Below, in pieces: positions 566 through 56,108 of a DNA stretch of 64,000 nt. The notes beneath the pieces are model-generated. The model saw only the letters and a program-made list of their open reading frames with translations, was not told the origin of the DNA and ran no database searches. Location of the stretch: NCBI GenBank assembly GCA_018060845.1, contig JAGOVG010000005.1:2530-66529 (forward strand), written 5' to 3'. Source of the DNA: Candidatus Woesebacteria bacterium (GTDB lineage Bacteria; Patescibacteriota; Microgenomatia; UBA1400; UBA12108). Numbering within the stretch: the stretch's first letter is position 1; every line of letters starts with the position of its first letter. The position numbers and the translations under genes were made by a program.

Positions 566-2776
566 CTACCCACACACAGCAAAACCACACCCGTAGCACT
601 TCTTACACCCCTCTTCTCTCACGAGTTTGCCGCCACAGTTCGGACACTCCATTCCCAACTCGTTATCCTTCTTCTGATTTACTGATTTGCCGACTCTCTG
701 AGTATTCTGGTTGTCCGACTTATCTGCTTTACCTACATTTAACACTTGAATGTCGCGTGAACCATCCCTATACACTGTAATCCCCTTACATTTGAGCTCC
801 GAAGCTAGGTAAAAGACGTCAAGGACATCGTCGACTGTGGCACTATTGGGTAGGTTAATAGTTTTACTAACTGCGTTGTCAGTATATTTTTGAAACGCCG
901 CAAGCATGGCTACATGTTCGCCCGCTGTCAGATCCATTGCTGTAATAAAGACGTCGCGAATCTCCTTGGGTATAGCCTCAATGTGCTGGATGCTCCCGAG
1001 GCGCGCGATCTCATCCATGAGCTCAGGCGAATAAAGACCGTTAACATGCTTGATTGCTTTGACCAGATCTGCATTAACCTCAGGCAGCGTGTAACTCCCC
1101 ATGCTTTTTCGGTAATATGCCAGAGCAAAGTGTGGCTCAATGCCACCTGAGGCGTTGGCCATCATACTGATAGTGCCGGTTGGAGCGATCGTTGTGACAG
1201 TGGCATTACGAAAATGTTTATAACCTCGCTTTTGCCAGAGTGATCCCTTAAAGTTAGGGAAGCTCCCCTTCTCTTTGCCCAGTTTAGCCGAGGTCTCCCA
1301 GCCGTTCTTCCTAACAAAGCTCATAACTTTCTCTGCCAAGTCGAGCGCTTCTTTTGAGTTATAGGGGATGTGTAGTTTGACGAGCATGTCTGCCCAGCCC
1401 ATGACACCGAGCCCTATCTTTCTGTTACCCCTCACTACTTCTGCCACTTTTTTGAGAGGGTACTCACAAACAGATACCACGTCATCGAGCATTCGAACAG
1501 AGATCTCGACACTCTCCCGGAGCTTGTCCCAGTCAATATGACTATCACCATTAGTCCCAGCCACATGTACTGCTAGGTTAATACTACCTAGGTTACAGGC
1601 TTCGTATGATAAGAGCGGCTGCTCCCCACACAGGTTAACTGTCTCTAGCACTCCGACGTGAGGGGTTGGATTGTATTTATTGATCTCGTCAACAAAAATA
1701 AGTCCTGGATCTCCGTTCTTCCAGGCCATCCTAGCTGCCTCTTCGAGTATCCCTCTGGCCGAGACTCGCGATGTTACTTGGCCGGTCCTAGGATTAATGA
1801 GCTCCCATTCTGCATTATTCTTGGCTGCCTCCATAAACTTGTGAGTGAGCGCTATCGAGTAGTTAATATGTGGCAGGTTGAGCCCAGATTCTTTGCAGTG
1901 GATAAAGTCGATTATGTCGGGGTGCGAAACTGGGATACTCACCATATTACCGCTTCGTCGTTTACCTGCTTGTAGATATATATCTGAGGCGTCGTTAATC
2001 AGCTGCATGAGTGCAACTGGCCCACAGGCTGCACCTGAGGTAGTGCTCACTGCATCATCTTTGGGTCTAATGTGTCCAAAAGTAAAGCCTACTCCCCCTC
2101 CATATTTTTTTAGTATCGAAGATTCTTTAAGTGATTCAAAGATCCCCTCGATATTGTCGGGCATTGGCATAACAAAACAGTTGGCTAGTTGGTTGTTGGG
2201 CGTACCTGAGTTAGCGAGTGTCCGCCCTCCAGGCATAAATCTAAGCTCCCTCATGACCATCTCAAACTTTTCTTGCCAAACCTTTTTATCTTTCTTTTCA
2301 CTACTGGCGAGGAACTTGGCAGTACGTCTAAACATCTCCCCAACAGTTTCTGCTACTTCGCCACTCTCGTCTTTTAAGATATATTTTTCTTTTGCGACAG
2401 TCAGTGCATTAAGGGTGAGGCCCACTTCATCATGCACACCTAGTGCATGCTTGGCCGATTCGACCTGTCTCTTCTTTTCTCTGTTTAAAATATAGGCTTT
2501 GGCAGTTTTGTAATGCGATTTTTCTAGTAGCACCCTCTCGACCATATCCCCTATCTCTGCACTAGTTACCTGGGTCAGTCTGCCATACTGCTTTTTGAGT
2601 CGCTCTAATACCTCTGCCCCTAGCTGGGCTGCTAGACTTCGATCAGTCCCGCCCGCGTCTTGAGCTGCCAGGAAGATTGAATCAGCGATCTTAGGTAGCT
2701 CCAATGCCTGCTCCCTCTCATTGCGCTTAAGTACTACTAACTTGTTGCCTGCTGCTTTTGTCTTTTTACTTCTCAT
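566..2776 (-). CDS. nrdJ: Adenosylcobalamin-dependent (class II) ribonucleotide reductase with an N-terminal ATP-cone and a C-terminal Cys4 zinc ribbon.
   Basis: 736 aa. NLCGEQPLLSYEACNLGSINLA active-site motif is typical of class II RNR. ATP-cone at the N-terminus. CPNCGG...CKKCYGCG at the C-terminus. Confidence 0.85.
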   Translation of the reverse strand: MRSKKTKAAGNKLVVLKRNEREQALELPKIADSIFLAAQDAGGTDRSLAAQLGAEVLERLKKQYGRLTQVTSAEIGDMVERVLLEKSHYKTAKAYILNREKKRQVESAKHALGVHDEVGLTLNALTVAKEKYILKDESGEVAETVGEMFRRTAKFLASSEKKDKKVWQEKFEMVMRELRFMPGGRTLANSGTPNNQLANCFVMPMPDNIEGIFESLKESSILKKYGGGVGFTFGHIRPKDDAVSTTSGAACGPVALMQLINDASDIYLQAGKRRSGNMVSIPVSHPDIIDFIHCKESGLNLPHINYSIALTHKFMEAAKNNAEWELINPRTGQVTSRVSARGILEEAARMAWKNGDPGLIFVDEINKYNPTPHVGVLETVNLCGEQPLLSYEACNLGSINLAVHVAGTNGDSHIDWDKLRESVEISVRMLDDVVSVCEYPLKKVAEVVRGNRKIGLGVMGWADMLVKLHIPYNSKEALDLAEKVMSFVRKNGWETSAKLGKEKGSFPNFKGSLWQKRGYKHFRNATVTTIAPTGTISMMANASGGIEPHFALAYYRKSMGSYTLPEVNADLVKAIKHVNGLYSPELMDEIARLGSIQHIEAIPKEIRDVFITAMDLTAGEHVAMLAAFQKYTDNAVSKTINLPNSATVDDVLDVFYLASELKCKGITVYRDGSRDIQVLNVGKADKSDNQNTQRVGKSVNQKKDNELGMECPNCGGKLVREEGCKKCYGCGFAVCG

Positions 2777-2956
2777 CGTCCATCCATACTACCCGACAAT
2801 CTCCATCCAGTGCAATAATACAAAGTAGAACAGTAGGGAGCGTAGACGTACTTTTTTTGCGCAGTGTAGTATGAGTAATCAAGCAAAATTGTCTGAGCAA
2901 GCAAAGCGGTCGAAGATAATTTTACCTGAAACGAATGTCACGCCAGCACAAAAATG

Positions 2957-4954
2957 TTAAGTCTCAGCGACTACAGACTTAACCGGCAACTTCCATGCCG
3001 CCCACTTACACTCCGGGTACTTCTCGCACCCATAAAACTTGCCCTTCCTGCTCTTCTTTATCACTACTCTCCCACCACACGTAGGACACAGATTCGCTCC
3101 CGCATACTCTACATACTGCGCCTTATAATCACATTCAGGATATCTATTACATGAGAGGAACTTGCCAAACTTACCTGTTCGGATTATGACCTCGCCCTCC
3201 TTACATTTGGGACATTGCTCACCCGTTGACTCGACCTGGACCTTTACCCTTTCACCTTTTTCCTCAACTAGCTTTACTGTCTCATTCATCGGCGTCCAGA
3301 ACGACCTAACCACATCGACCCACTTCTTTTTCCCATCTGCTACCGCATCTAGGTCTGACTCCATCCTGGCGGTAAACTCATACGCCATCACGTTCTCAAA
3401 GTTAGCAGTCAAAAACTCGACAACTGCAATCCCGACTGCAGTCGGGTGGAACCGCTTTTCTTCTTTGGTCACATAACCCCTGTCCTGGATCGTGCTGATA
3501 ATCGCCGCATAGGTGCTAGGCCGGCCGATCCCTCTCTTCTCTAGTTCTTTGATCAGCCCTGCCTCGCTATAGCGAGCAGGTGGCTGGGTAAACTTTTGAG
3601 TTGATTCGACTTTGATTAGCGGTAATACCTCACCGCTTGTTACTTGTGGTAGGAATACATCGTCTGCACTCTTGCCAAGTTTCATATACCCATCAAAGAT
3701 CATTCGCTTACCATCAGCCTTGAGCTCATACATTGTTGCATTGTTGCTCTGTTGCGTTGTTGCACTTACCAATATTGTCGTTTTATCAAATCGAGCATCC
3801 TGCATTTGGCACTGCATAAATCTAGTTCGGATCAGCTCATACAGCTTTTTGTCCCTACCCTCTAGCTCTGGAGATGCACTCACGTTTGTCGGTCTTATCG
3901 CCTCATGAGCTTCTTGGGCGCTCGCAGCCTTAGTTTTATATACCCTCGGAGCAGGTGGTAAATACTCAGCACCAAATGAGCTTAATATGTAGCTCCTAGC
4001 AGCCTCAACCGCTTCTGTCGCTAGATTATATGAGTCTGTTCGGTGGTAAGTAATTAATCCTCGCTCATAGAGTGACTGTGCTATCTGCATAGTCTGCTTG
4101 GCAGAGTATCCAAACATATTAGATCCAGCTCGCTGCAGTAGCGAGGTAGTAAATGGTGGCTGAGGTGAGCTTTTTTGCTCCTCATTACTAACTCCTAATA
4201 CAGTATAGGTCGCCTCTTCTAGGTCTTTTACGACCTTGCCTGCAGTTTCACTATTATTTATTTTCGCGGTTTTACCATCTATCCTTACTAGTTCGACCCT
4301 TAGTTCTCTTTCACCTTGTCCCTTGTCGCTTGTCCCTCCCACTGATCTAAGATCAGTAAAAATCTCCCAATATTCATCCGCAACAAAAGCGTTAATCTCT
4401 TTTTCTTTATCGACGATTAGTCGGACAGATACCGATTGGACACGCCCAGCCGATAACCCTCTCCTCACCTTTTTCCACAGTACCGGCGAGAGTGTGTAGC
4501 CCACGAGCCTATCTAGCACCCGACGTGCCTGCTGCGCATTCACTAGATCCATATTAACCACACCTGGGTGGTTTAATGCTTCAAGTATCGCGGTCTTGGT
4601 GATTTCATGAAATGTTACTCTCTTGAACCTTGTCCCTTGAACCTTGTCCCTACTATCTGACAGCAAATACTGGACATGGTAAGAGATCGCCTCTCCCTCG
4701 CGGTCTGGGTCAGTTGCCAGATAGATGATGTTGGCTTTTTTTGCTAATGCCTTAAGCTCAGACACTCGCTTCTTTTTTGAAGATAGTACCTGATAGTTAG
4801 GCTCAAAGTCATGGTCTACATCAATAGCTAGTCCGCCACCTTTTTCTGGTAGATCACGGATGTGTCCCATCGACGCTTCGATCGCATACTCACGTCCGAG
4901 GAACCTCGATAGTGTCTTAGCTTTGGTGGGTGACTCAACAATTACTAAATCCAT
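2957..4954 (-). CDS. topA: DNA topoisomerase I
   Basis: 665 aa. Toprim N-terminus (VIVESPTKAKTL...HIRDLP). Catalytic Tyr region. C-terminal Zn-ribbon repeats (CPKC...C..C). Confidence 0.9.
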   Translation of the reverse strand: MDLVIVESPTKAKTLSRFLGREYAIEASMGHIRDLPEKGGGLAIDVDHDFEPNYQVLSSKKKRVSELKALAKKANIIYLATDPDREGEAISYHVQYLLSDSRDKVQGTRFKRVTFHEITKTAILEALNHPGVVNMDLVNAQQARRVLDRLVGYTLSPVLWKKVRRGLSAGRVQSVSVRLIVDKEKEINAFVADEYWEIFTDLRSVGGTSDKGQGERELRVELVRIDGKTAKINNSETAGKVVKDLEEATYTVLGVSNEEQKSSPQPPFTTSLLQRAGSNMFGYSAKQTMQIAQSLYERGLITYHRTDSYNLATEAVEAARSYILSSFGAEYLPPAPRVYKTKAASAQEAHEAIRPTNVSASPELEGRDKKLYELIRTRFMQCQMQDARFDKTTILVSATTQQSNNATMYELKADGKRMIFDGYMKLGKSADDVFLPQVTSGEVLPLIKVESTQKFTQPPARYSEAGLIKELEKRGIGRPSTYAAIISTIQDRGYVTKEEKRFHPTAVGIAVVEFLTANFENVMAYEFTARMESDLDAVADGKKKWVDVVRSFWTPMNETVKLVEEKGERVKVQVESTGEQCPKCKEGEVIIRTGKFGKFLSCNRYPECDYKAQYVEYAGANLCPTCGGRVVIKKSRKGKFYGCEKYPECKWAAWKLPVKSVVAET

Positions 4955-4973
4955 ATGTGATTAAAATACGCGC

Positions 4974-5522
4974 TTATGCCAGGCGTGTCAACAAATCTGC
5001 TACCACTTCCTCAACTATCTTGCCTACTATTTTCCTCTCATCAGGTCCAAAATCTTGCAGACTATAAACTACTCCTGGTACTCCTTTATTCCCCCTAACT
5101 TCCCTATTCTCTACACCGACTCGCACATTCCAATACAGGTTAGTCCCTAGTGTTTGCTCGACCGACAGCAAACCATTGTGTACCTTAGGCGCTTTGCCAT
5201 GCTGGATCTTATAACTGCCGAGTGGTATATCCAGGTCATCATGAATAATAAAGATGTCCTCACTCTTTATCTTGTAAAAGCGTGAAATTGCAGAGACTGC
5301 TTTGCCACTGTCGTTCATAAAAGTGGTTGGTTTTGCGAGCACATAATCTTTTGTCTGAACAATCTCGGCATCAAATTTGGATTTTAACTGAAAGTTTAAT
5401 TCTTCACTTTCATCTTTAACCTTTAACCTTTTTACTAGTTCGTCGACCACCACAAACCCAATATTATGTCGGTTATTCTTATATTTTTCACCTGGATTGC
5501 CCAGTCCTACAACTAACTTCAT
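4974..5522 (-). CDS. pth: Peptidyl-tRNA hydrolase. Start moved to the internal Met (MKLVVGLGNPG); the track ORF extends upstream into the repeat element.
   Basis: GLGNPGxxY...RHNxG Pth signature. Conserved D/H/N residues. Confidence 0.85.
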   Translation of the reverse strand: MKLVVGLGNPGEKYKNNRHNIGFVVVDELVKRLKVKDESEELNFQLKSKFDAEIVQTKDYVLAKPTTFMNDSGKAVSAISRFYKIKSEDIFIIHDDLDIPLGSYKIQHGKAPKVHNGLLSVEQTLGTNLYWNVRVGVENREVRGNKGVPGVVYSLQDFGPDERKIVGKIVEEVVADLLTRLA

Positions 5523-5564
5523 AAAAAGATCATACACTAAGTAACACAGTGAGCTAAGAGTGCA

Positions 5565-5668
5565 GAAGTATTTTGTAGTCGAAAAATTTTGCGCAGGCCG
5601 GGTAGGCCGAGCTCGAGGTCGCCCCGCCAGCTGGCGGGGATAGACCGCTTTTTCGCACAAAGTACTTC
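5565..5668. repeat. Structured ~100-nt repeat element, family R1, copy 1. Terminal inverted repeats gaagtattttg / caaagtacttc enclose a conserved core (aaaaattttgcgcagg.cgggtag.ccgagctcgaggtcgc) and a variable inner hairpin (ccccgccagctggcgggg).
   Basis: Direct comparison with the copies at 11572, 16627 and 55987. Confidence 0.7.
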
Positions 5669-5687
5669 GAACTCTGTATGCGAACTA

Positions 5688-6275
5688 TTAATTACCCTGC
5701 AGTTTCTTTATCAAATCTTCAGGACTCCCGACCGGCACTCCCCCATTCTCTATTATCTCTATCGTCCCCGCAAAACTCGGGTCATCTACTGGACCAGGTA
5801 TCACGTAGACATCTCTTCCCAGCTCTGCTGCGTGCTTAACCGTATTCTTGACTCCACTCTTATGAGGTGAACATGTCACTAGGACTGCATCTGACAGCTT
5901 AACCAGCAACTCATTTCGCACAAAAAACTGCTCCCGTGTCGGCCTATTCCCCTCTGGGTACGCACTCGCTAGTAGTCCACCAGCGTCTAGTATCTCCTGC
6001 TTAAGACTTTTATGCTCTAACGGATAACAATAATCTAACCCATGCGCTAGAACTGCAATAGTCTTACCTCCCATTTTGATAGCTGTTCTATGCGCAATAG
6101 CATCTACCCCGAGCGCCAGTCCCGACACTATGGCATATCCTGCTTTTACCAGCGCAGCCACAAACTGCTCAGTCACCCGGACCCCATATGGGCTCACTGC
6201 CCTAGTTCCCACTACCGCGATCCGTGGCATCGATAGGCATGTCTGGTCTCCCAACAAATATACATCTCGACTCAT
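5688..6275 (-). CDS. dprA: DNA processing protein DprA/Smf (Rossmann-fold DNA-binding domain). The start is probably an internal Met (MSRDVYLLG).
   Basis: VSGLALGVDAIAHRTA... and GTxxT-type motifs typical of DprA. The track ORF starts at GTG. Confidence 0.7.
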   Translation of the reverse strand: MSRDVYLLGDQTCLSMPRIAVVGTRAVSPYGVRVTEQFVAALVKAGYAIVSGLALGVDAIAHRTAIKMGGKTIAVLAHGLDYCYPLEHKSLKQEILDAGGLLASAYPEGNRPTREQFFVRNELLVKLSDAVLVTCSPHKSGVKNTVKHAAELGRDVYVIPGPVDDPSFAGTIEIIENGGVPVGSPEDLIKKLQGN

Positions 6276-6293
6276 AGCGTTATAATAGCAAAA

Positions 6294-6332
6294 CACCCTC
6301 CTCTAGAGTGTCTTTCTCATTAGAGGAGGGTG
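6294..6332. terminator. Perfect 12-bp stem hairpin (caccctcctcta...tagaggagggtg). On the minus-strand transcript it is followed by UUUUGCUAUU, so it is a likely terminator of the small-gene operon upstream of dprA.
   Basis: Inverted repeat seen in the sequence, with a T-run on the minus strand. Confidence 0.5.
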
Positions 6333-6340
6333 TTCTAATC

Positions 6341-6472
6341 CTACTCTTCCACTAACAACATAACTGGAACATTGACAACTACTCCATCATCCAGAACGAC
6401 TTCCTTTAACCAAGTAGTCGGATCGTTAACATCAAAATCTGGATTTGTTTCTTCTAATTGTTCTACTGCCAT
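6341..6472 (-). CDS. Hypothetical 43-aa acidic peptide (MAVEQLEETNPDFDVNDPTTWLKEVVLDDGVVVNVPVMLLVEE). It has a strong RBS (AGGAGGTGAGTATAT-ATG) and lies immediately downstream of the Cys-rich 82-aa gene.
   Basis: Manual translation. Below the ORF-track length cutoff. RBS spacing is good. Confidence 0.3.
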   Translation of the reverse strand: MAVEQLEETNPDFDVNDPTTWLKEVVLDDGVVVNVPVMLLVEE

Positions 6473-6496
6473 ATATACTCACCTCCTTTCTATTAT

Positions 6497-6745
6497 TTAT
6501 TCTTGATAACCACATCTCCCTGTATGATTTTCTGCACTTATCCACCCAGCTGACGGGAAGATTCTAGCCATAATTGGACATTCTGTTGTGACTACTTGTC
6601 CTATGACTCGCAAATTCATACCTGATCTATCATCAGTGTTAGCATCAGTAATTTTCGGATTACAGACCGGAGCATTATCACAACCTCCACGACAAAATTT
6701 TTGAGTTAATCTTGATGTAGTGAATATATCTACTGTATTGGTCAT
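6497..6745 (-). CDS. Hypothetical Cys-rich small protein (82 aa; CRGGCDNAPVCNP...ECP...GRCGY).
   Basis: ORF with a C-x3-C-x5-C cluster plus two additional Cys residues. No recognisable family. Confidence 0.4.
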   Translation of the reverse strand: MTNTVDIFTTSRLTQKFCRGGCDNAPVCNPKITDANTDDRSGMNLRVIGQVVTTECPIMARIFPSAGWISAENHTGRCGYQE

Positions 6746-6755
6746 AAAATTCCAT

Positions 6756-6790
6756 TAAAAAACCCGCCTCTTGGTGCGGGTTTGTGTATT
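6756..6790. terminator. Bidirectional Rho-independent terminator (A-run, cccgc-ctcttggt-gcggg hairpin, T-run).
   Basis: GC hairpin flanked by A7 and T-rich runs. Lies between the convergent polyprenyl synthase and Cys-rich genes. Confidence 0.5.
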
Positions 6791-6941
6791 TTGCTTTTAA
6801 TTAAGCTATATATTTACACAATACCCAAAGCACCCCAGACGAGGAGGTGTTTAAAGTTAATGGTATAAATACGAGACTGGCTGTTCATAACTTTTGTAAG
6901 TATCCCAAAAACAGAATTCTCTTGCAATATATCAAAATATA

Positions 6942-7838
6942 TCAGTTTTGCCTGCTAGCCATCCAGTCCACTATTTCACGTAGCGTCGCATCATCCGTCG
7001 CGTCTTTTGCTAGCTCAGCGTGTCTTAGTATTTCAGCTTCCAGTTTTTCCTTCCCATACATCAGGGCAAAGCTATGCTTCCCCTCCCGAGCATCATTCCC
7101 GACGGGCTTACCAGTTTTACTGCTATCCCCCCACTCAGCCAGGTAATCATCACGGAGCTGAAACACCCATCCTAGCTCCATCCCATACTCAGTTAAGTTC
7201 TTTATTAATCCTGGCTTAGCGCCACCCAGTGTTGCTCCAAATACTAGCGGAAGTATGCAGCTGTACTCACCTGATTTGAGGGCCAGGATCTGCAGTAGAC
7301 TCGCTTCATCTGCTACCTGTAGCACATCTAGCATCTGCCCATATCCAACACGAGAAAAGTACTTCCCCCACACGGCCGTTGCATTTGTAATTTGTAAATT
7401 GGTTATTGGTAATTTAAGCGTAGCGAGCGTCTCCATCCCCCAACCAAATGTTAGATCCCCTGCACAGATGGCGAGAGCTTCGCCAGCGTGTCTATCACCA
7501 TACCTCGCATGCACTGTCGACACACCCCGTCGCAGATCATCCCGATCCATAATGTCGTCATGAATAAGGAGTCCTAGGTGAAATAGCTCCATAATTACTG
7601 CAGCTCGCACCACCTCACTCACACCCTCTTTGCTACCCCCAGCGATCTGGTAACCGAGGATAGTCAGTAGTCCGCGCATCCGCTTGCCACCATGCGAAAG
7701 CTCTCTCATGGCATTAACTGCCTTTACTAGTTCAGGTGAAATCTCTTTAACTTCCTCTAACCTCCTACCAAGCTCTGCCTCAATCTCAGTATCAATCAGT
7801 GGTTTCGATTGCTCAATAAAATTAGTTAACACGTTCAT
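6942..7838 (-). CDS. Polyprenyl diphosphate synthase (FPP/GGPP synthase family).
   Basis: Two Asp-rich motifs: LLIHDDIMDRDDLRRG and FQLRDDYLAEWGD. Confidence 0.85.
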   Translation of the reverse strand: MNVLTNFIEQSKPLIDTEIEAELGRRLEEVKEISPELVKAVNAMRELSHGGKRMRGLLTILGYQIAGGSKEGVSEVVRAAVIMELFHLGLLIHDDIMDRDDLRRGVSTVHARYGDRHAGEALAICAGDLTFGWGMETLATLKLPITNLQITNATAVWGKYFSRVGYGQMLDVLQVADEASLLQILALKSGEYSCILPLVFGATLGGAKPGLIKNLTEYGMELGWVFQLRDDYLAEWGDSSKTGKPVGNDAREGKHSFALMYGKEKLEAEILRHAELAKDATDDATLREIVDWMASRQN

Positions 7839-7875
7839 ATTGAATCATTATATTACTATATGCATATTCGGAATA

Positions 7876-8400
7876 TCACCTCAGAAGTAGGTGGAGGCTA
7901 AACGTTCCGTTATCAGCATCATTGGGATGTAAAAATCTATGCTTGTTTTTACCATCTGCAATATGCAATTCAACGTCAAATAATCCACTTTTATCAAACT
8001 CCTGTTTGAATATTCGACCAATTACCGGCGTTCCTGCATCGTATGTACTTTCTACCACACATAGACCACCACGATTCAAAACACGGACTAATCCTCTTAT
8101 AAAGGGCTTAATTTCGATTAATTCTTTGTCATATGGGGCAAGCAACAAGTTGGACGCAATGATTACATCAAATTTTGGATCCGAGTATCCAGCTGCAAAT
8201 TTTAGAAAACTAATTTCTTGATAGGTTGCTCCAGGAAAATTACCGAGATTAAATTGTAATTTGCGATCATCGACAAAAACGATATTTGCAGATGAAAATT
8301 TACTTAGATAATCATAAGATGGAAGAGGTCCAGGACCGATCTCTAATATCCTATCTGTTGAGCGAGGTTCATAGTCAAACCCCTTCTCTTGTCGAGACAT
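7876..8400 (-). CDS. Class I SAM-dependent methyltransferase-like protein.
   Basis: LEIGPGPLP motif I-like and VLNRGGLCVVE motif. 174 aa. Confidence 0.55.
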   Translation of the reverse strand: MSRQEKGFDYEPRSTDRILEIGPGPLPSYDYLSKFSSANIVFVDDRKLQFNLGNFPGATYQEISFLKFAAGYSDPKFDVIIASNLLLAPYDKELIEIKPFIRGLVRVLNRGGLCVVESTYDAGTPVIGRIFKQEFDKSGLFDVELHIADGKNKHRFLHPNDADNGTFSLHLLLR

Positions 8401-8417
8401 ATCTTTTCATCCTTCCT

Positions 8418-9503
8418 TTATAACCCCAATAATTTACCCTCTTCCAAAACCACCTTATCATCTATAGTCAGTACGCTCCCAGGAGTTCGCATATCCTTGA
8501 CTATATCCCAGTGGATAGCACTCTCGTTCTCTCCCCCACCTCTCTTCTCTTTATACGCCCTGCCTAGTGCCATATGGATCGTGCCGCCAATCTTTTCGTC
8601 AAATAGTGTGTTCAACATCCCTCTGGTAATCTTAAAATTAGCCCCTATTGCAAACTCACCCAGATATCTCGCACCTGGATCTGTCTCTAGCATCTTAAGT
8701 AGCGCCTCCTCTCCCCGCTCTGCCTTGGCATTTATTACCTTCCCGTCTTTAAACTCTAGGTGGATACCAGACACTTCGTGTCCATATGCGAGAGTTGGCA
8801 GTTCAAAATAGACCTCGCCATTTACCCCGTCCGTAACAGGCGCCAGAAAGCATTCACCGTCTGGGATATTCCGCTCCCCAAAACATGCTTGAGCTAGCCT
8901 CCCTTTAATATTCACGTGTAGGTCCGTCATTCGTCCGACGACATGGATCACACTCCCCTCATCCATCACTTTTTCGAGGGATTTTAGGTCTTTTTCCATC
9001 TTCTTGTAGTCAACTAGTACACTGTCAAAGTAAAAGTCACGCAAAGAAGACAAACTCATCCCTGCCTCTTGCGCCATGGCGTCCGTTGGATAATAGGTCA
9101 AGATCCAGCGGTCACTATCGATCATCGGATCCATGAGTGGTCTGATTAGTTTGGATCGCTCAGTCATCTTTTTTGGGTCTATTCGCGACAAAGCTCGTAG
9201 GTTATCGTCCGCGACAATCCGTACGTACGCATCAGCCCAAGCAATCTTGGCTTTGATTACCTCTTTGGGTACATGCAATAGCTGCCAGTCATTTGCTAGG
9301 TTATAAAACTCATAATCCATTCCTGAGGTAGCGACATCGAGCATAGGGTACGCTCCACGCTTTAAAGTCTCTATATACACCGCCTTAGCTAGTAGCAACC
9401 CTAGATCACTGCTGGTAATTAATACCTTCTCTTTGGGCTTAACTGCCACCGAGTGGTCTAACATGATCGCAGCTAATTTAAAATCATTTTCAGTCGGAAA
9501 CAT
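8418..9503 (-). CDS. Aminopeptidase, peptidase family M29 (AmpS/PepS-like).
   Basis: 361 aa. C-terminal FDEKIGGTIHMALG and EFAIGANF motifs are characteristic of M29 aminopeptidases. Confidence 0.65.
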   Translation of the reverse strand: MFPTENDFKLAAIMLDHSVAVKPKEKVLITSSDLGLLLAKAVYIETLKRGAYPMLDVATSGMDYEFYNLANDWQLLHVPKEVIKAKIAWADAYVRIVADDNLRALSRIDPKKMTERSKLIRPLMDPMIDSDRWILTYYPTDAMAQEAGMSLSSLRDFYFDSVLVDYKKMEKDLKSLEKVMDEGSVIHVVGRMTDLHVNIKGRLAQACFGERNIPDGECFLAPVTDGVNGEVYFELPTLAYGHEVSGIHLEFKDGKVINAKAERGEEALLKMLETDPGARYLGEFAIGANFKITRGMLNTLFDEKIGGTIHMALGRAYKEKRGGGENESAIHWDIVKDMRTPGSVLTIDDKVVLEEGKLLGL

Positions 9504-9539
9504 TACTTGATTATACTTGTGCTATTTTTAAATGCAAAG

Positions 9540-10952
9540 CTATTTCTTACTTATTGTTAGTAGCACCGCATCACTATCATTTAAGACGACCTCACGGCTG
9601 TATGCCCCACCCACGACCGTCATCTCAGAGTTAATACTGCGTCCCGATAGGTAAGACTCGACTACTTTGTATACCCCATCCTCCATCCCGATCATATTAA
9701 GCGGTACCACCTCGTCATGTGTCCCCTTTTCGTCGTAGTTAACAGCCAGGATCCTGATCACCTCGCTACTATCTCGCGTTGCAATGGCAGTCACGTAGCC
9801 ACCCTCGCCAGACAGTACTAGCCTGTCACCATTAATTGGTGCTAACATCTCCCATGCCTTAAACCTCGGCTTCTTGGCTACTGCTCCATATTTGGGATTA
9901 GTCAACATACCCCAGCCACCATGGAACTGTCCCTTATCAGCGGGCGCCCCATCCATAATCTCAAAAGCAAATGCTAGGTCGATATTGGTATCCATCAGTG
10001 CGCGGTTAACTGCCAGGTAATGTGCCGCAGCCCAGCGACCGTCATACATAGCCCCACGCTCTGGGTTGATCCCCCATTCGGTGATGAATAGATCTTGTGG
10101 ACGTGTGATCCGCGTACTCATCATGTCCGATGCTGTCTTAGCATCATCAATAAACTTGTCGACCTTGGTGTCGTAGCGGTGCCAGGAGAAAAAGTCGATT
10201 CGCACATTCTCATCTAGTTTGTCATAAAAACCAGTTACCCATGCAGGATAAAATCCAGTAGTTGCTGGTCCACCAATCTTAAATGGCTTGGCACCTCGCA
10301 CACCATTGGCTGCATTAGCAGCTGTTGCATAAAGCGTCACATAGTTCTTACTCCCCCCCATCTTCCAGCCACCAAACAAGTCAGGCTCATTCCAGACTTC
10401 GTATATCACCCCGTCGATGCCACCCTTATAATCACGGCTATAACGGCCAACTGTAGCAGCTACGACAGCTCCCCAATCACCCCAGTTATTAGGGAAGTCG
10501 AGGATATCGCCCTTGCTTATTGCAGACGGCATATAAGACAGCGCAATAAAAGGTTTGGCACCCATCGCTGTAATATCTGAGATCATCGCATCCAGTTTGG
10601 TCCAGTTGTATGCGAGCTGCCCATTGCCGCCACGTGACACCACATCAAAACCATCAAATACATGGTCGATTCGGACGTATCTAACCCCAGTCGATTTGAC
10701 TATTGGTGCAACGCCACTAAGTCTAAAGTCAGCATCGGGTAGTTTTTCATAACCCTGCGCTACCCCATCCCACACCCTCCGCACCCGACCATTGGTCTGG
10801 CTCACGTCCACTGTAATATTTGCAGGAGCAAAGCTCGCACCAGTTAGATATTTCCAGGCTTGCTGGGCCAGCGGGATTGTAACTGGCAGTAGTGCCATTA
10901 AGATTACAACCAACAAAATAGTCTTAAGATTCTTTTGAAAATATTTGCGCAT
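9540..10952 (-). CDS. Membrane-anchored or secreted glycoside hydrolase, clan GH-A-like (GH5/GH39-type (beta/alpha)8 fold).
   Basis: N-terminal TM/signal. WNEPD (acid/base Glu) and ITEWG (nucleophile Glu) motifs in the typical spacing. Confidence 0.5.
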   Translation of the reverse strand: MRKYFQKNLKTILLVVILMALLPVTIPLAQQAWKYLTGASFAPANITVDVSQTNGRVRRVWDGVAQGYEKLPDADFRLSGVAPIVKSTGVRYVRIDHVFDGFDVVSRGGNGQLAYNWTKLDAMISDITAMGAKPFIALSYMPSAISKGDILDFPNNWGDWGAVVAATVGRYSRDYKGGIDGVIYEVWNEPDLFGGWKMGGSKNYVTLYATAANAANGVRGAKPFKIGGPATTGFYPAWVTGFYDKLDENVRIDFFSWHRYDTKVDKFIDDAKTASDMMSTRITRPQDLFITEWGINPERGAMYDGRWAAAHYLAVNRALMDTNIDLAFAFEIMDGAPADKGQFHGGWGMLTNPKYGAVAKKPRFKAWEMLAPINGDRLVLSGEGGYVTAIATRDSSEVIRILAVNYDEKGTHDEVVPLNMIGMEDGVYKVVESYLSGRSINSEMTVVGGAYSREVVLNDSDAVLLTISKK

Positions 10953-10982
10953 TACAGTAACTATGACATATAATCACAATCT

Positions 10983-11546
10983 ATGTCCACCATCAAAGCT
11001 AATCAACTCAAAGGCGGGATGTTTGTCCTCTTTAAAGACGCTCCTCATGAGGTAGTAAAGTGCGAGTTCTACTTCCCCGGCAAAGGCAGCGCTTTTGCTC
11101 GAACTCGCCTTAAGAATGTACGTACTGGCAGTGTCCAAGATTTTACCTACAAAAGTAGCGAAACAGTCGAAGTGGTCGAGGTCGATACACTAGAGCTTCA
11201 GTATCTCTACGCAGATGGTGACACCTTCTACTTTATGAACCCTAGGACTTTTGATCAATTCGAAGTAAAGAAATGGGTCTTTGACGGCAAAGAAAGATAC
11301 CTCCTAGCCGAAGCCAAGATGTTCTTTAATCAATACGAGGGCGAGGTCATTGGTGTCCGTTTTCCCCCCAAAGTTAATCTTAAGATTACCGAGTCCCAAG
11401 ATGCCGTAGCCGGCAACACTGTAAACGCCGCCAAAAAACCCGCCATGACCGAGAATGGTTTTGAGGTTATGGTCCCCCTCTTTGTCAAAACTGGTGAGTC
11501 AGTAATCGTCGATACCGAAACAGGCGAATACGTTAGTCGAGCATAA
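10983..11546 (+). CDS. efp: Elongation factor P
   Basis: 187 aa. KGG motif at the N-terminus and conserved EF-P OB-domains. Confidence 0.9.
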   Translation: MSTIKANQLKGGMFVLFKDAPHEVVKCEFYFPGKGSAFARTRLKNVRTGSVQDFTYKSSETVEVVEVDTLELQYLYADGDTFYFMNPRTFDQFEVKKWVFDGKERYLLAEAKMFFNQYEGEVIGVRFPPKVNLKITESQDAVAGNTVNAAKKPAMTENGFEVMVPLFVKTGESVIVDTETGEYVSRA

Positions 11547-11571
11547 TTCTCATAAAACGGTTACAGACACA

Positions 11572-11665
11572 ACTTTACAGTCAAAAAATTTATCGCAGTT
11601 CGGGTAGAACGAGATCGAGGTCGCTGAGTCAGCTGACTCAGACAGACCGCTTTTTTGCGTAAAGT
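11572..11665. repeat. Family R1 structured repeat, copy 3 (divergent). Inner hairpin ctgagtcagctgactcag and outer stem actttac/gtaaagt both carry compensatory changes relative to copies 1 and 2.
   Basis: Alignment to the other copies. The conserved core cgggtagaacgagatcgaggtcgc...gacagaccgctttttt is retained. Confidence 0.6.
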
Positions 11666-11687
11666 GGGTCGAAAACCAATATTAGAA

Positions 11688-12260
11688 TTATCTCTCGGCC
11701 GTTAGTTTTAGCCAGTTATCGTTATTGCTTGCACAAGTCTTAGATTCTACCCTGACTTTCATATAATCAACGCCTGAGATTGTCTTGATAGTCCCGCTCC
11801 TACCACCATAAGTAGTGTTAGCTAGTAGCTCATTACCATCTTTTTTCCAGATGGTTATACCAAAGCTAGTGTTATCAATTAGTTCGTAGCGCAATGTAAG
11901 TGGTCCAGTAATATCCTTAACCTCAGTTATATAACTGATCGGGCAGATGCTGGTCTTAACTAAAGTAAGGGTTAGGTGAGATGTAGTAGTTGTGGTCGTC
12001 TTAGTGGTGGCTACACCTTTAACTGTCCCGATATTTTTGACTGGTAGCCCACCTTTGGTCGTAGATGGAGCAGATGGCTCTGGTGACATACTAGGTTTAA
12101 CTGATGTCGAGGGAGCAGGAGATGTAGAAGCTATAGGTGTAGGTGACGCACTAGGTGTAGGAAAGAGCTTGCCAAACAGTCCGGTCACCCCGCGAAAAGC
12201 GAGGACACCAGCGACTACTAATACGAGCACAGTAACTAAACCGATCAAAAATTGTTTCAT
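11688..12260 (-). CDS. Hypothetical membrane-anchored or secreted protein with a Ser/Pro/Thr-rich linker. Start moved to MKQFLIG.
   Basis: N-terminal hydrophobic helix. Low-complexity PSxSP linker. Confidence 0.45.
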   Translation of the reverse strand: MKQFLIGLVTVLVLVVAGVLAFRGVTGLFGKLFPTPSASPTPIASTSPAPSTSVKPSMSPEPSAPSTTKGGLPVKNIGTVKGVATTKTTTTTTSHLTLTLVKTSICPISYITEVKDITGPLTLRYELIDNTSFGITIWKKDGNELLANTTYGGRSGTIKTISGVDYMKVRVESKTCASNNDNWLKLTAER

Positions 12261-12310
12261 ATGTCCTATATTATATACCACGCTGTCAAATATTATGATA
12301 AATGCTAGTA

Positions 12311-12547
12311 TCAATCTATATTTTCAGATCCGCTACGCTTATCCTGGGTCATCCATGGCAAGACTGTCGTTTCCCCCAATATCCGCTGTCTAAATGCTGC
12401 TCTTTTTTCTAAATATGATTTGACAGACATCCCAGGTTTGATATCGTCTACTATGTAATCAGCTTCTTCGCTGGGCAACCCCAGCTTTAGTAATTCTGCT
12501 AATATCTTTAATTTCTTATCTTCTCTGCCCACACTATTTTCGGTCAT
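12311..12547 (-). CDS. Hypothetical protein (78 aa)
   Basis: ORF overlaps the 3' end of the upstream EpmA-like gene by 14 nt in an operon-like arrangement. Confidence 0.3.
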   Translation of the reverse strand: MTENSVGREDKKLKILAELLKLGLPSEEADYIVDDIKPGMSVKSYLEKRAAFRQRILGETTVLPWMTQDKRSGSENID

Positions 12548-13580
12548 ATAATTCCTCTACCGGGAAAAAAAGTGTATCAGCAATGCTCGGTGTATCGGCA
12601 AATAGTGCGACCAGCCTGTCCACCCCGACAGCTATTCCCCCAGTTGCTGGAATACCTAGCTTTAGCGCTTCGATAAAATCCTCATCCATTGGATACTCGG
12701 TCTTACCTAGTTTTTTGCGCTCCAAGAGGTCTGCTTTACACCTACTCTCCTGCTCTCTCCAGTCCGTCAGCTCCGAAAAACAGTTCCCTAGCTCGTATCC
12801 TGCCAGATACACTTCCCATCGCTCCGCAAACCTTGGGTCTTTTGCTTTACGCGCGAGCGCAGCCTGGGACACAGGAAAATCGTACAGGATAGTCGGGCCA
12901 GCTACACCCAGCTTAGGTTCTATCTCATTTGCGATGATCTGGTTCCACATCTCTTCCCACGTCGAGTTCTCGTCGACTTGATACCCTTTATTTTTGCTCG
13001 CCACAAACAGCTTATCCCTATCCAGCATCGACTCGGTATCAATCTCTGCATACTTTTCAAAAGCTTGCGCAACAGATATCCTCTCCCACGGTGCCTTTAG
13101 CGAATATTCTTTACCTTGATACTTAAGTGTTGTTGCATTGTTGCTATGTTGCATTCTATTGTTTATCGCAATCATCATTTCCTCAAAATCTGCTGCCACC
13201 GTCATATAGTCACCTGGTGTGTGATACCACTCGAGGATGGTAAACTCTGGGTTGTGCCGACTAGACCGCCCCTCACCGTTACGAAAAGATTTGGCAATGG
13301 TAAAGATGGAGCCTGACCCAGCAGATAAGAGTTTTTTTAGTGCAAACTCAGGTGAGGACGGCAAAAAACCGTCCCACTTATTGCCATGATCATCTACTAG
13401 CTGAGTCTTAAATACCTCTAGGAATGGCTCGGTAGAAGGCGTGGGGAGTAGTAGCGGCACCTCTGCTTCATGAAATCCACGAGTCTTAAAAAATGAGCGA
13501 ATCGCGTCAATTACCTGCTCTCTCACCCAGTACTGGCGCCACAGCGCGGGATTAGCTTTTAGTTTTTGAAATGTTTTCAC
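12534..13580 (-). CDS. epmA: EF-P lysine ligase-like class II aminoacyl-tRNA synthetase paralog (EpmA/GenX/PoxA-like, i.e. LysRS catalytic core without an anticodon-binding domain).
   Basis: 348 aa. Class II aaRS motifs (FTILEWY, GYELGNCFSEL, GGIAVGVDRLVALF). No N-terminal OB domain. Lies ~1 kb from efp. Confidence 0.6.
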   Translation of the reverse strand: MKTFQKLKANPALWRQYWVREQVIDAIRSFFKTRGFHEAEVPLLLPTPSTEPFLEVFKTQLVDDHGNKWDGFLPSSPEFALKKLLSAGSGSIFTIAKSFRNGEGRSSRHNPEFTILEWYHTPGDYMTVAADFEEMMIAINNRMQHSNNATTLKYQGKEYSLKAPWERISVAQAFEKYAEIDTESMLDRDKLFVASKNKGYQVDENSTWEEMWNQIIANEIEPKLGVAGPTILYDFPVSQAALARKAKDPRFAERWEVYLAGYELGNCFSELTDWREQESRCKADLLERKKLGKTEYPMDEDFIEALKLGIPATGGIAVGVDRLVALFADTPSIADTLFFPVEELYDRK

Positions 13581-14382: not shown

Positions 14383-15417
14383 GTGTATACTATGGGATAT
14401 ATGAAAATAGCTTGGGACTGGTCACTAGAGAGCGAGGCAGAGAGGATACTTGAGATGTCCCTCAAGATCAGTAATGGCTTCTACCACCTCCATCACTTCC
14501 TCCCCCTCCCATTTGACCTAAAAAATACTCGAAAAGATACCTCCCACCATGTCTATCTCCCAGATCTACCCTATACCAAGATCCCTCGGTACTGGGAGTC
14601 TACAAGTCAGGTTGGGGCAACCTACCCCCTCAAACAACTTGGTTCTATCTCCGACCAGTTAGCGCAGCATCTTACCCTCCGCAAACTCCCTTCGCTCGAT
14701 AGCCATATAGTCCAACCAGATGCCGAGATCTATCTCCCCCTAGTGATTACTTGGCTACAATACACGTTCCCTAGACTTCCGCTCCCAGAGACAATCTTGA
14801 TCCACCCCAGCTACTTTGGCACCGGCGGCTCATTCTATTTTAATCAAGAGTCAAAAACAGTCATCCTCTATCTGCGCCATGATCAAGGCCTCTACCCCCT
14901 AGTTGAGATCCTCTTAACTGCACTCCTTAGGCCTCATGCAGGCGAGACCATCTATGCCGACTGGGAAAAGACAGAGTACCTAGTCGACTATCTACTCCTC
15001 GAGAGTAATCTAAAAGATCTCCTGCCCTCTCCTTCTTCTTGGACTCCTACTACCATCCCACCCCACTACTCACTATTCACAGTCAAAGAGTCGACAGACT
15101 TTGTCAAAAAAATAGGACTTAGCAACCATGTCGAATGCCAGTTTAGTCTAGAGGGTGATACTATCTGCTTTAACCATGTCCTCCTGACAGACTTTACAGC
15201 TAGCCAACATGCATTACTTTCTGCCTTGATCTCGCGCTCACCCGCGCCCTTAACCGTAGACGAGATCGCAGACTTAATATTCACCAAAGATGAAAAATTT
15301 AGCCTGAGTGCAATCGGCAAAACTATAGAGAGGCTTCGCAAAAAACTAACGACACTCGGCATCAGTAGTAGCTATATCGCAACAGCGAGCGGTGTCGGGT
15401 ATTATCTCAAGAATTAA
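14383..15417 (+). CDS. Standalone transcriptional regulator with a C-terminal OmpR/PhoB-type winged-helix DNA-binding domain and no receiver domain (paralog C of three).
   Basis: The C-terminal region (LTVDEIADLIF...TIERLRKKL...SGVGYYL) has the trans_reg_C pattern. The N-terminal domain aligns with 50966..52000 (LPxLPYTxIPRxWES, ILLTALLRP/ILAAIFRP). Confidence 0.55.
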   Translation: MYTMGYMKIAWDWSLESEAERILEMSLKISNGFYHLHHFLPLPFDLKNTRKDTSHHVYLPDLPYTKIPRYWESTSQVGATYPLKQLGSISDQLAQHLTLRKLPSLDSHIVQPDAEIYLPLVITWLQYTFPRLPLPETILIHPSYFGTGGSFYFNQESKTVILYLRHDQGLYPLVEILLTALLRPHAGETIYADWEKTEYLVDYLLLESNLKDLLPSPSSWTPTTIPPHYSLFTVKESTDFVKKIGLSNHVECQFSLEGDTICFNHVLLTDFTASQHALLSALISRSPAPLTVDEIADLIFTKDEKFSLSAIGKTIERLRKKLTTLGISSSYIATASGVGYYLKN

Positions 15418-16478: not shown

Positions 16479-16626
16479 AGCGTCCTATATGATAGCACAG
16501 ATCTGGGATCAAGACACAGGGATAGCATCATAAAACATCAGAAAGCATCAAAGTAGACATTAACCACAACCAGTACAGACGTCAATTTTTTGTGCAGGAT
16601 AATTTTCTATCACTAAGCCGATGGAA

Positions 16627-16728
16627 GAGTATTTTGCAGTCAAAAAATTTTGCGCAGGGCGGGTAGCCCGAGCTCGAGGTCGCCCCGCCAGCTGGCGGGG
16701 ATAGACCGCTTTTTTGCGCAAAGTACTC
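16627..16728. repeat. Family R1 structured repeat, copy 2. Nearly identical core and inner hairpin to copy 1. Outer stem gagtattttgc/gcaaagtactc.
   Basis: Alignment. Lies in the divergent intergenic region between mreB and the O-antigen-ligase-like gene. Confidence 0.7.
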
Positions 16729-16764
16729 TGAATCGCAGTGACATAATCCTGTTATACTTTTCCT

Positions 16765-40601: not shown

Positions 40602-40720
40602 CCTCTATACTATAGTTTGCATGCATCCAACTGTGCATCTATTCAATGATCACTAGTTATGCTATACTTGACAAGTTCCCCCAAGATATTAGTTTAAAAA
40701 AGATAAAAGGAGAATTCATC

Positions 40721-41383: not shown

Positions 41384-41518
41384 GTGATTTCGCTGCGCCC
41401 CACCGAAGCTCACCAGAGCGAAGGAGGGCTCAGGTGTCAAAAATCTAAATATAGGTTATAATTACGCCCGGTACCACGCTTCTAGGTACTAGGTAATTAG
41501 TACTAGGAACTAACAAAT

Positions 41519-42660: not shown

Positions 42661-42718
42661 TCAGCTATCTTCTCACATTTATCTTGCCTCCATCAACCAC
42701 TTTTGCTATAACATAAAC

Positions 42719-42937: not shown

Positions 42938-43015
42938 ACTCCCCCACCTCTGCTATAATCCCCTTATTCATTATTACTTGAATCCGGCCACGTCCGAGAT
43001 ATTAAGGAGAATTAT

Positions 43016-43939: not shown

Positions 43940-44092
43940 TCCTATAACTTGACATTTATCCCGTATCACTGCGGTCATTTTCATCAGGGTGTCCGAGTTT
44001 CTCGGACTGAAGATTAAACTACATTTAATATCAACGACTAGCGCGGACGCAAACAATATATTAATAACCAAAGTGTAATATACTGATCATAT

Positions 44093-45733: not shown

Positions 45734-45744
45734 AGGAGACAAAT

Positions 45745-55905: not shown

Positions 55906-55986
55906 ATCAGAATATTACCATATATGATCAAAATAACGTCCAAAAAGATGTGTCTCATGCAACATACTTGCGAACTAAAGGGTGCA

Positions 55987-56089
55987 GGAGTATTTTGTAA
56001 AGAAAAATTTTGCGCAGGTCGGGTAGACCGAGCTAGAGGTCGCTACGCCATCAGGCGGAGACAGACCGCTTTTTCTGACAAAATACTCC
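55987..56089. repeat. Family R1 structured repeat, copy 4. Outer stem ggagtattttgt/acaaaatactcc (12 bp). Inner hairpin ctacgcc-atca-ggcggag.
   Basis: Alignment. Lies immediately downstream of the mreB paralog-2 stop. Confidence 0.7.
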
Positions 56090-56108
56090 GAACCACCGAG
56101 TGAGCTGA

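Follow-up and report, generated by a model that had tools for sequence, protein, structure and literature searches.

What kind of element is represented by the four similar hairpin repeats in a 64,000-nt stretch of the genome of Candidatus Woesebacteria bacterium (contig JAGOVG010000005.1; hereafter, the window)? An earlier examination of this DNA, the sequence-only reading, offered two options, a novel noncoding RNA (ncRNA) or a DNA hairpin resembling a MITE (miniature inverted-repeat transposable element). The comparison of copies across related genomes fits the second option and disfavors the first. The repeats belong to a genuine, previously undescribed family of interspersed, structurally constrained sequences in Microgenomates-type bacteria of the candidate phyla radiation (CPR). 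There is about an even chance, in our judgment, that the element is nonautonomous interspersed DNA similar to REPINs, MITEs, and Rickettsia palindromic elements (RPEs), which is read as a folded single strand in a process coupled to replication. The DNA option is favored because copies are present or absent at corresponding sites in relatives, one copy lies within a dus gene, direct repeats flank most copies, all copies share one strand polarity, and genes for Y1 (HUH) transposases are found in the lineage. A dedicated ncRNA gene appears unlikely because of the lack of a conserved promoter, the antisense position of the structured strand at most sites, and the presence of one copy in a coding sequence.

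The four copies (c1 to c4) are found on the plus strand of the window at positions 5565 to 5668, 11572 to 11665, 16627 to 16728, and 55987 to 56089, exactly where they had been placed, and in the same orientation, as had been claimed. Their shared core, expressed as the pattern CGGGTAGNNCGAGNTNGAGGTCGC, matches these four places and no others and had no match in 100 shuffled sequences. When the entire window was searched with a covariance model and no filters, the same four copies were found, with scores of 121 to 131 bits, the next best match scored 12 bits, and no further copies or degenerate relics were detected; the search also ruled out the 112-nt insert in the window gene for tRNA-dihydrouridine synthase (Dus) and the gap at 12315 to 12533 as members of the family. 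The inner hairpins and outer stems had been quoted correctly, and NCBIfam matches confirm the assigned gene contexts, but all three had been labeled with copies 2 and 3 interchanged relative to their coordinates. Thus, it is the copy at 11572 that has the ctgagtc inner hairpin (ctgagtcAGCTgactcag, helix P6 below) and the actttac stem and is located in the convergent efp region, whereas the copy at 16627 has the ccccgcc hairpin and is located in the divergent mreB region. The open reading frames (ORFs) 5589..5870 and 16650..16841 are read-throughs of the repeat, as had been recognized.

The secondary structure predicted by RNAalifold from 20 copies is a folded unit of about 130 nt that consists of the basal helix P0, a GCA/GA internal loop, helix P1, the A/T helix P2, and a three-way junction (Table 1). 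This unit extends past the previously described outer stem, adding P0 and the GCA/GA loop outside it, and it also includes a covarying P4 hairpin and a 2-bp helix on the inside. The invariant unpaired nucleotides of the junction are the GGGUA loop and the segments GAG-N-U-N-GAGG and GAYAGACCG. When pairs were counted in 24 copies, 92.8% of the pair cells were paired, compared with 75.6% in shuffled sequences (none of 500 reached the observed value) and 29 to 45% in slid controls. Changes on both sides were seen in 24 of the 37 pairs, and the covariation score was 0.51 versus 0.18. The compensatory change in nested helices that had been proposed from four copies therefore holds for 24, and this covariation supports selection on the secondary structure. 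The family is small and alignable, and its covariation is unusually clean.

The element strand is the more stable of the two in 22 of the 24 copies (by 6.1 kcal/mol on average) and has 56 G-U pairs, compared with 25 on the complementary strand. As the GC skew of the element is +0.11 and that of its surroundings is about −0.18, the pairing preference of the element strand opposes the local mutational bias. One frame of the minus strand is often open, which is uninformative with respect to coding because the copies are related. The possibility that the flanking GCGAGC pairs with the internal GCUCG was considered by eye and dismissed for lack of covariation (copies of the L014 type).

The search of related genomes that the sequence-only reading had proposed revealed more homologs. 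At least 33 copies, which occupy 27 independent sites, belong to the family, and every one of them is in low-GC assemblies of uncultured bacteria (loci from these related assemblies are designated L006, L047, and so on). Of the 44 loci retrieved when species-representative genomes were scanned for the exact pattern, 17 are true homologs, in assemblies with a GC content of 0.41 to 0.51, and 27 are chance matches in high-GC coding DNA; a metagenome scan added 8 copies. No match to the family was found in the viral contigs, plasmids, and phages searched. The hosts are labeled Candidatus Woesebacteria, Candidatus Microgenomates, “bacterium,” and “uncultured Pseudomonadales.” However, the assemblies with the last of these labels are syntenic with the window and with a Microgenomates assembly at 70 to 80% identity, and their gene content would fit a CPR organism, so that the label looks wrong. 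The loci in question are L006, L012, L022, L024, L029, L034, L035, L037, L041, and L043; their contigs are either syntenic with the window or nearly identical to Woesebacteria or Microgenomates assemblies (L021 versus L022; L041 and L044 versus the window). A weak model match in L027 (2807 to 2966, minus strand; 19 bits, E = 0.07) contains pieces of the core in scrambled order (ACGCAG, CGAG, GGTCGC, and AAAAATTTTGCGC) and may be a decayed or rearranged copy.

The suggested comparison with Rfam retrieved no family for the element. At the gathering threshold, Rfam matches were limited to tRNAs in the window and to tRNA and transfer-messenger RNA (tmRNA) in the related loci, and a scan of one copy at E < 10 gave chance matches only, with 11 to 15 bits. 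A tRNA-like origin was considered and rejected, as neither ARAGORN nor the Rfam tRNA model matches the copies. No earlier description of this family or of any CPR repeat family turned up when the literature was searched for the core sequence and for CPR repeats; the one paper in which the core string occurs reports unrelated work on Arabidopsis, and the match is due to chance. Little is known of mobile DNA and noncoding structures in the CPR. On the practical side, the repeat yields spurious ORFs and can also sit within real genes, and it should be masked in the annotation of these genomes.

The most distinctive property of the family, which had escaped the sequence-only reading, is its polarity. 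The element is found on the C-rich strand at all 27 independent sites (21 first-round loci and then L057 and L061), where the GC skew in the element orientation ranges from −0.10 to −0.32. In every locus, this skew has the same sign for genes on both strands, third codon positions included, and hence follows the chromosome strand, not the direction of the genes. The plus strand of the window has a very strong and uniform skew, with a value of about −0.18 for the whole and values of −0.2 to −0.4 for third codon positions, and its 32 plus-strand and 38 minus-strand ORFs lie under a constant skew. Relative to the neighboring genes, every arrangement of the element occurs, and at most sites its structured strand lies antisense to the genes beside it. 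Such absolute polarity is the hallmark of single-strand transposition coupled to replication. The substrate on which Y1 transposases act is folded single-stranded DNA (ssDNA) at the lagging-strand template (PMC6006769, PMC5027513), and families of insertion sequences (IS) show family-specific orientation biases relative to replication (PMC3971601).

The assignment of leading and lagging strands in this lineage is contradictory. On the one hand, 112 of 161 long ORFs follow the canonical arrangement in being on the G-rich strand. On the other hand, the nusG-rplK-rplA-rplJ cluster (window 40646 to 45733), 9 of 12 tRNA and tmRNA genes, and gyrB-gyrA of a Collierbacteria relative are all on the C-rich strand. 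Either the nusG-rplKAJ and tRNA genes, which are highly expressed, run head-on against replication, or this lineage has an inverted skew rule, and the polarity of the repeat could help resolve this oddity. Among the tRNA genes of the window, four of five are on the C-rich strand.

Copies come and go between relatives. Two related loci are syntenic with parts of the window, L047 with positions 566 to 12862 and L041 with positions 45236 to 61694. The c2 site is empty in L047, where the stop codons of efp and of the convergent gene overlap as TTAA, and both L052 and L053, which are close relatives, have c2. Likewise, c4 is absent from the syntenic L041 and from L054 and L056, which encode an identical MreB protein, and is present in L055. 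The copies L047b, L044/L051, and L041 have no counterpart in the window, and c1 is the sole copy retained in both the window and L047 (ortholog L047a, L047 7655 to 7785). Exact-protein lookups for Pth and for the first MreB, which sought close relatives, found nothing. At the c4 site, L054 (3500 to 3661) and L056 (1520 to 1683) carry unrelated long hairpins of about 130 to 160 nt, with folding energies of −61.5 and −44.3 kcal/mol, respectively, which fold better on the sense strand of mreB. Long intergenic hairpins seem to be rapidly replaced in this lineage.

The copy in L041 (2484 to 2650) lies within the ORF for Dus (1711 to 2871), which remains open: it encodes 386 amino acids, versus 363 in the Dus of the window, and the two proteins align from end to end. 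This copy has an additional 36-nt hairpin at its junction. The window dus ORF (52494 to 53585) has an insert of its own, 112 nt at 53259 to 53370, in the same position as the L041 element. The insert contains a perfect palindrome of 18 to 20 nt, (A)CCTGCCTGCGCAGGCAGG(T), at 53281 to 53298, which is also found in L006 (1909 to 1926) and a variant of which makes up the extra hairpin of the L041 copy; a similar palindrome, CCTGCCTGCCGGCAGGCAGG, is found at L047 5326 to 5345. A divergent family member in L057 (6220 to 6347) sits between two comEC ORFs. The comEC gene of L057 (5323 to 7491) is split in the ORF calls into Lactamase_B and Competence, which in L064 are separated by a gap of only 13 nt.

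The orthologous pair shows how individual copies change. Outside P6, c1 and L047a are 87% identical, whereas within P6 they share only 44% identity: the helix has been replaced as a whole, from CCCCGCC/GGCGGGG in c1 to CUGAGUC/GACUCAG in L047a. At the same time, P6 is 100% identical in c1 and c3 and 94% identical in c4 and the nonorthologous L047b. These swaps are read as gene conversion between copies. Elsewhere in the pair, an A-U pair of P0 has changed to U-A and a G-C pair of P2 to A-U with the structure kept, and two A-to-G changes produce G-U pairs on the element strand.

Most copies are flanked on both sides by direct repeats of the RCGAGY type, which are imperfect and match at 6 to 8 of 9 positions. 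The upstream repeat is located 0 to 4 nt before P0 and the downstream one 0 to 7 nt after its 3' half (P0'), often directly adjoining the stop codon of the neighboring gene. The two repeats of one copy are more alike than repeats of different copies (P = 0.002). In place of RCGAGY, AATAATT flanks the L044/L051 copy on either side. These repeats could be target-site duplications or conserved cleavage or target motifs, and their presence on both flanks is compatible with cleavage sites like those of the IS200/IS605 family.

The tRNA and tmRNA genes of this lineage have ordinary −10 boxes 8 to 10 nt upstream of the mature 5' end, but upstream of the copies there is neither a −10 box nor any other conserved sequence except the short direct repeats. 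The plus strand of every copy has the P5/P6 hairpin followed by GC and then by U5-7, which resembles a terminator. However, a terminator consensus scan found a site, with a different stem, at one of the four window copies, and neither promoter nor terminator consensus sequences occur at these copies in any consistent manner.

A candidate enzyme came from a loose screen for the HUH...Y motif among 459 ORFs from all low-GC loci (about 250 kb), which flagged a single ORF, L006 379 to 1071. Its product matches the Y1_Tnp domain (Pfam ID PF01797) with 44 bits, above the cutoff of 23; its best NCBIfam match is to the REP-associated tyrosine transposase (RAYT; REP, repetitive extragenic palindrome), with 38 bits, below the cutoff of 80. 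Y1 genes of related assemblies score 38 to 55 bits against the same cutoff (NF047646). Perfect 23-nt palindromes, CCTGCGAGGATWATCCTCGCAGG, lie on both sides of the L006 gene and once inside it, an arrangement like that of a REPtron that is also seen at the Y1 homologs in L061, L062, and L070. This protein family has more than 2,000 members, some of them named from Microgenomates and Collierbacteria. L057 encodes, within 15 kb, two Y1 genes together with four members of the repeat family (one typical and three divergent), all on the C-rich strand; in L006 and L057, the distance between repeats and Y1 genes is 0.4 to 1.3 kb. The Y1 palindromes have two motifs in common with the element: GCGAG, which corresponds to its flanking repeats, and CGCAGG, which corresponds to its two conserved YGCAGG motifs. 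In two species (L057 and L064), a Y1 gene adjoins comEC/comEA, a neighborhood that suggests vertical inheritance of the gene.

From these observations, the following mechanism may be proposed. The element would be recognized and moved as folded ssDNA at the replication fork by an enzyme acting in trans, most plausibly a REP-associated-type Y1 (HUH) tyrosine transposase of the lineage. Cutting would occur at the RCGAGY motifs on both flanks of the hairpin, in a peel-and-paste manner similar to that of IS200/IS605 and REP/RAYT. The structure would be conserved because only folded copies serve as substrates, with gene conversion homogenizing the copies, and effects on host transcripts through the terminator-like P5/P6 hairpin and the U tract of the plus strand would be secondary. 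The strand polarity and the occurrence of RAYT-like genes in the same lineage provide a testable pair of enzyme and substrate, which would extend the REP/RAYT relationship from simple hairpins to a complex junction.

Several observations weigh against this mechanism. No transposase or integrase Pfam match was found among the approximately 50 window ORFs, 98 kb of DNA around more distant Y1 homologs holds no copy of the family, and the repeats that do lie beside Y1 genes are a 23-nt palindrome distinct from the element. The sharing of GCGAG and CGCAGG by that palindrome and the element is a lead only, and an association of the family with Y1 genes, suggested by the proximity in L057, was not established, given the 98 kb devoid of copies. 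Under the canonical rule that the leading strand is G-rich, the structured strand is on the leading-strand template, whereas IS200/IS605 elements use the lagging one, which is a possible conflict. The flanking repeats are imperfect, and the divergence of the available empty sites exceeds 10%, so that exact junctions are not definable. The window copies are only 69 to 84% identical to one another, which makes the family old, with no recent burst within this genome. Finally, the in-place compensatory changes in c1 and its ortholog could mean that the element functions at the level of the host rather than through mobility.

The last of these points leads to the other explanations. One of them, which we consider unlikely, holds that the element is a structured RNA acting in place, as a plus-strand terminator or insulator, an antisense RNA, or an RNA stability module, its mobility being incidental. 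The one-strand preference revealed by covariation with G-U pairs, the changes that preserve pairing at a single locus (P0, P2, and wobble shifts in P1 of c1 and L047a), and the invariance of the core across several species would all be expected of an RNA, and the GC-rich P5/P6 with its U tract would suit a terminator, c2 being on the same strand as efp and exactly at its 3' end. However, a terminator has no use for P0 to P4 and the invariant loops; the gene abutting the element occupies the opposite strand at approximately 16 of 23 sites, where read-through would produce the less stable complement; the terminator call at one in four copies, the lack of a conserved promoter in a lineage with ordinary −10 boxes, and the copy within dus do not fit; and the lock to the chromosome strand, not to gene direction, at 27 of 27 sites is left without explanation. 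We regard as distinctly unlikely the possibility that the element is a classical MITE, i.e., a deletion derivative of an IS with a DDE transposase, with P0/P1 as terminal inverted repeats (TIRs) bound in double-stranded form and with flanking target-site duplications of 7 to 10 bp. Inverted terminal arms are present in all copies, the direct repeats covary within copies (AATAATT in L044/L051), presence/absence polymorphism is evident, and in DDE IS families, too, an orientation bias can arise, through the beta clamp (PMC3971601). Nevertheless, the arms, which as transposase-binding TIRs should keep their sequence, are the least conserved part and covary freely, and the invariant nucleotides are found in the internal loops and the junction. 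In addition, a single-stranded form is indicated by the G-T pairing preferred on one strand, the right repeat follows the right arm at a variable distance of 0 to 7 nt, and no parent IS or DDE transposase was found among the window ORFs; the HUH screen of the approximately 250 kb of related loci, which is blind to DDE transposases, flagged the Y1 gene only.

The absolute polarity at 27 sites might also be explained by a domesticated polar site, folded DNA that is bound by a host protein and kept by purifying selection at each locus for a role connected with replication, for example in the processing of forks or of the lagging strand, in orienting the chromosome, or in controlling recombination. 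The cross-species invariance of the core, the composition of the element, which opposes the local skew, and the retention of an orthologous copy with compensatory changes against a background identity of about 75% agree with this idea. We nonetheless hold it to be very improbable, since most sites are not conserved between relatives, the density of copies is irregular (4 in 64 kb, 4 in 15 kb, and 0 in 98 kb), the family is limited to a narrow clade, and relatives bear unrelated long hairpins at the same intergenic site. A broader version, to which we assign a rather low probability, would view the element as a host-maintained, replication-polar three-way-junction module of ssDNA (or RNA) that is read from one strand and subject to purifying selection at each locus, with P6 as an exchangeable “cassette.” If so, a domesticated Y1/HUH enzyme that serves a chromosomal function could use it as substrate, or, alternatively, the element could mark these genomes as ones in which the relation of GC skew to the direction of replication is inverted. 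Mobile ssDNA read in its folded form is the explanation that we prefer, and the coordinates of the copies are listed together with those of the candidate enzyme genes (Table 1).

Table 1. Helices of the folded unit, the four window copies with their surroundings, and the RAYT-like gene settings in related loci
Feature	Position	Strand	Description
P0, family			4-5 bp, covarying; e.g., AGAGU/ACUCU, CGGGU/ACCCG, UUGGU/ACCAA, CGAU/AUCG
Internal loop, family			Conserved, asymmetric, 5'-GCA/5'-GA; the GCAG...GAAC conservation just beyond the previously described outer stem
P1, family			10-12 bp
P2, family			A6/U6; GCAAAA/UUUUGC in a second subfamily
P3, family			2 bp; G-C, U-A, and A-U all seen
P4, family			GNNC-GGGUA-GNNC; two middle pairs covary
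P5, family			GGUC/GACC; GGUG/CACC in divergent copies
P6, family			7 bp, hypervariable, ANNN loop
c1, upstream direct repeat	5549..5556	+	GTGAGCTA; GCGAGCAG in the L047 ortholog
c1, full folded unit	5557..5675	+	Covariance model, 131 bits
c1, P0	5557-5561/5671-5675	+	AGAGU/ACUCU
c1, internal loop	5562-5564/5669-5670	+	GCA/GA
c1, P1	5565-5575/5658-5668	+	
c1, P6		+	Hairpin on the three-way junction, ccccgccAGCTggcgggg
c1, downstream direct repeat	5680..5687	+	GCGAACTA; adjoins dprA stop codon, 5688-5690
c1, neighbors			Left, pth (−), with topA (−) farther out; right, dprA (−)
c2, full folded unit	11559..11677	+	Covariance model, 123 bits
c2, P0	11559-11562/11674-11677	+	GGUU/AACC
c2, P1	11572-11578/11659-11665	+	P6, ctgagtcAGCTgactcag
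c2, neighbors			Left, efp (+); right, hypothetical (−); convergent
c3, full folded unit	16619..16735	+	Covariance model, 131 bits
c3, P0	16619-16622/16732-16735	+	CGAU/AUCG
c3, P1	16626-16637/16718-16729	+	P6 as in c1
c3, neighbors			Left, mreB (−); right, O-antigen-ligase/TPR (+); divergent
c4, upstream direct repeat	55970..55978	+	GCGAACTAA
c4, full folded unit	55980..56097	+	Covariance model, 121 bits
c4, P0	55981-55983/56092-56094	+	GGU/ACC
c4, GCA loop	55984-55986	+	
c4, P1	55987-55997/56079-56089	+	
c4, P6		+	ctacgccATCAggcggag
c4, downstream direct repeat	56100..56108	+	GTGAGCTGA; adjoins mreB stop codon, 56109-56111
c4, neighbors			Left, GT4 glycosyltransferase (−), its start facing c4; right, second mreB (−), its stop facing c4
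RAYT-like Y1 gene setting	L006 351-1144		Cognate 23-27-nt palindromes
RAYT-like Y1 gene setting	L057 4508-5301		Cognate 23-27-nt palindromes
RAYT-like Y1 gene setting	L057 13911-14622		Cognate 23-27-nt palindromes
RAYT-like Y1 gene setting	L061 9917-10710		Cognate 23-27-nt palindromes
RAYT-like Y1 gene setting	L070 9923-11775		Cognate 23-27-nt palindromes
Palindrome type			CCTGCGAGG; names the REP/RAYT subclade

The window has some further features of note. A 24-nt palindrome, CCCAGCTGCTCGCGAGCGGCTGGG, is found in two copies, at 62649 to 62672 and 63030 to 63053, which flank a small ORF and a tRNA-Arg gene and are both preceded by the conserved flank tcaayggatag. Its center, GCTCGCGAGC, contains GCGAGC, the motif found beside the elements, and these palindromes may be the REP-like family of the window genome itself. 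On the minus strand, at 24268 to 26427, there is an ORF of 719 amino acids with a weak match to the TrwB_AAD_bind domain (DNA-binding domain of the type IV secretion coupling protein; E = 2.5e-7), surrounded by many ORFs with no family match. Three paralogous proteins of about 345 to 360 amino acids are encoded on the plus strand at 14383 to 15417, 46862 to 47947, and 50966 to 52000. They have in common only the C-terminal winged-helix domain of the OmpR/PhoB type (Trans_reg_C), and no receiver domain was detected in them.

Among the known systems, the REP/REPIN-RAYT group shares with the element interspersed, mostly intergenic hairpins in which the structure and a few unpaired nucleotides, not the stem sequence, are kept. 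In REP/RAYT and IS200/IS605 systems, the hairpins are recognized as ssDNA with short motifs beside the foot; for the element, the same would follow from its preference for pairing on one strand and from the RCGAGY repeats at its flanks. A further likeness to both systems is a strand-biased coupling to replication (PMC6006769, PMC5027513), and the lineage encodes RAYT-like genes with palindromes flanking them and within. However, the element is 130 nt long with a three-way junction, in contrast to the simple hairpins of 20 to 65 nt in REPs and REPINs, and does not form the inverted doublets of REPINs. REPs are defined by the tetranucleotide GTAG or GTGG located 0 to 2 nt 5' of the hairpin foot (PMC6006769); the element has neither at its foot, and GTAG occurs solely in its P4 loop. 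Further, its flanks on both sides are direct repeats, whereas the RAYT-like genes are flanked by the other, 23-nt palindrome. With respect to IS200/IS605, the structured strand would be on the strand opposite to that of IS608-type elements under the standard skew rule, and the element is one composite hairpin whose arms are its ends, whereas the ends of these IS are distinct subterminal hairpins with conserved tetra- or pentanucleotides for cleavage and no TIR.

RPEs are likewise palindromic repeats of about 100 to 150 bp that are found in reduced genomes as old, diverged copies with no linked transposase. They insert in frame within protein-coding genes without destroying them (PMC10969869), which is comparable to the L041 copy in its open dus ORF, one clear case and a comparison of behavior, not of sequence. 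The differences are in the host, an unrelated phylum, in the mostly intergenic location of the element, and in that no conserved encoded peptide has been shown for it. Its strict polarity and the covariation of its junction were not found mentioned for RPEs in PMC10969869.

The Correia/NEMIS, ERIC, BOX, RUP, and bcr1 elements, bacterial MITEs that fold as RNA, are similar to the element in size (100 to 170 bp), inverted arms, flanking repeats resembling target-site duplications, location at gene ends, and potential effects on transcripts. For some of them, including bcr1, compensatory changes are reported. To our knowledge, none of these families has been reported to be strand-locked to replication. 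They have sequence-conserved TIRs related to those of known IS families and defined target-site duplications (such as TA or TTTAT), whereas in the element the arms vary and the junction is invariant.

The attC sites of integrons are also folded ssDNA substrates in which structure rather than sequence is kept, one strand is active, and the orientation relative to replication matters (PMC5371416). However, the element has no R''/R' boxes (RYYYAAC/GTTRRRY), its GCA and GA(A) flanks are not complementary, and its copies are scattered among housekeeping genes, with no cassette array and no integron integrase nearby. Thus, the element fails the formal definitions of REPs, IS200/IS605 ends, attC sites, and every Rfam family; in mechanism, it is closest to the peel-and-paste systems of REP/RAYT and IS200/IS605, and in behavior, to the Rickettsia palindromic elements.

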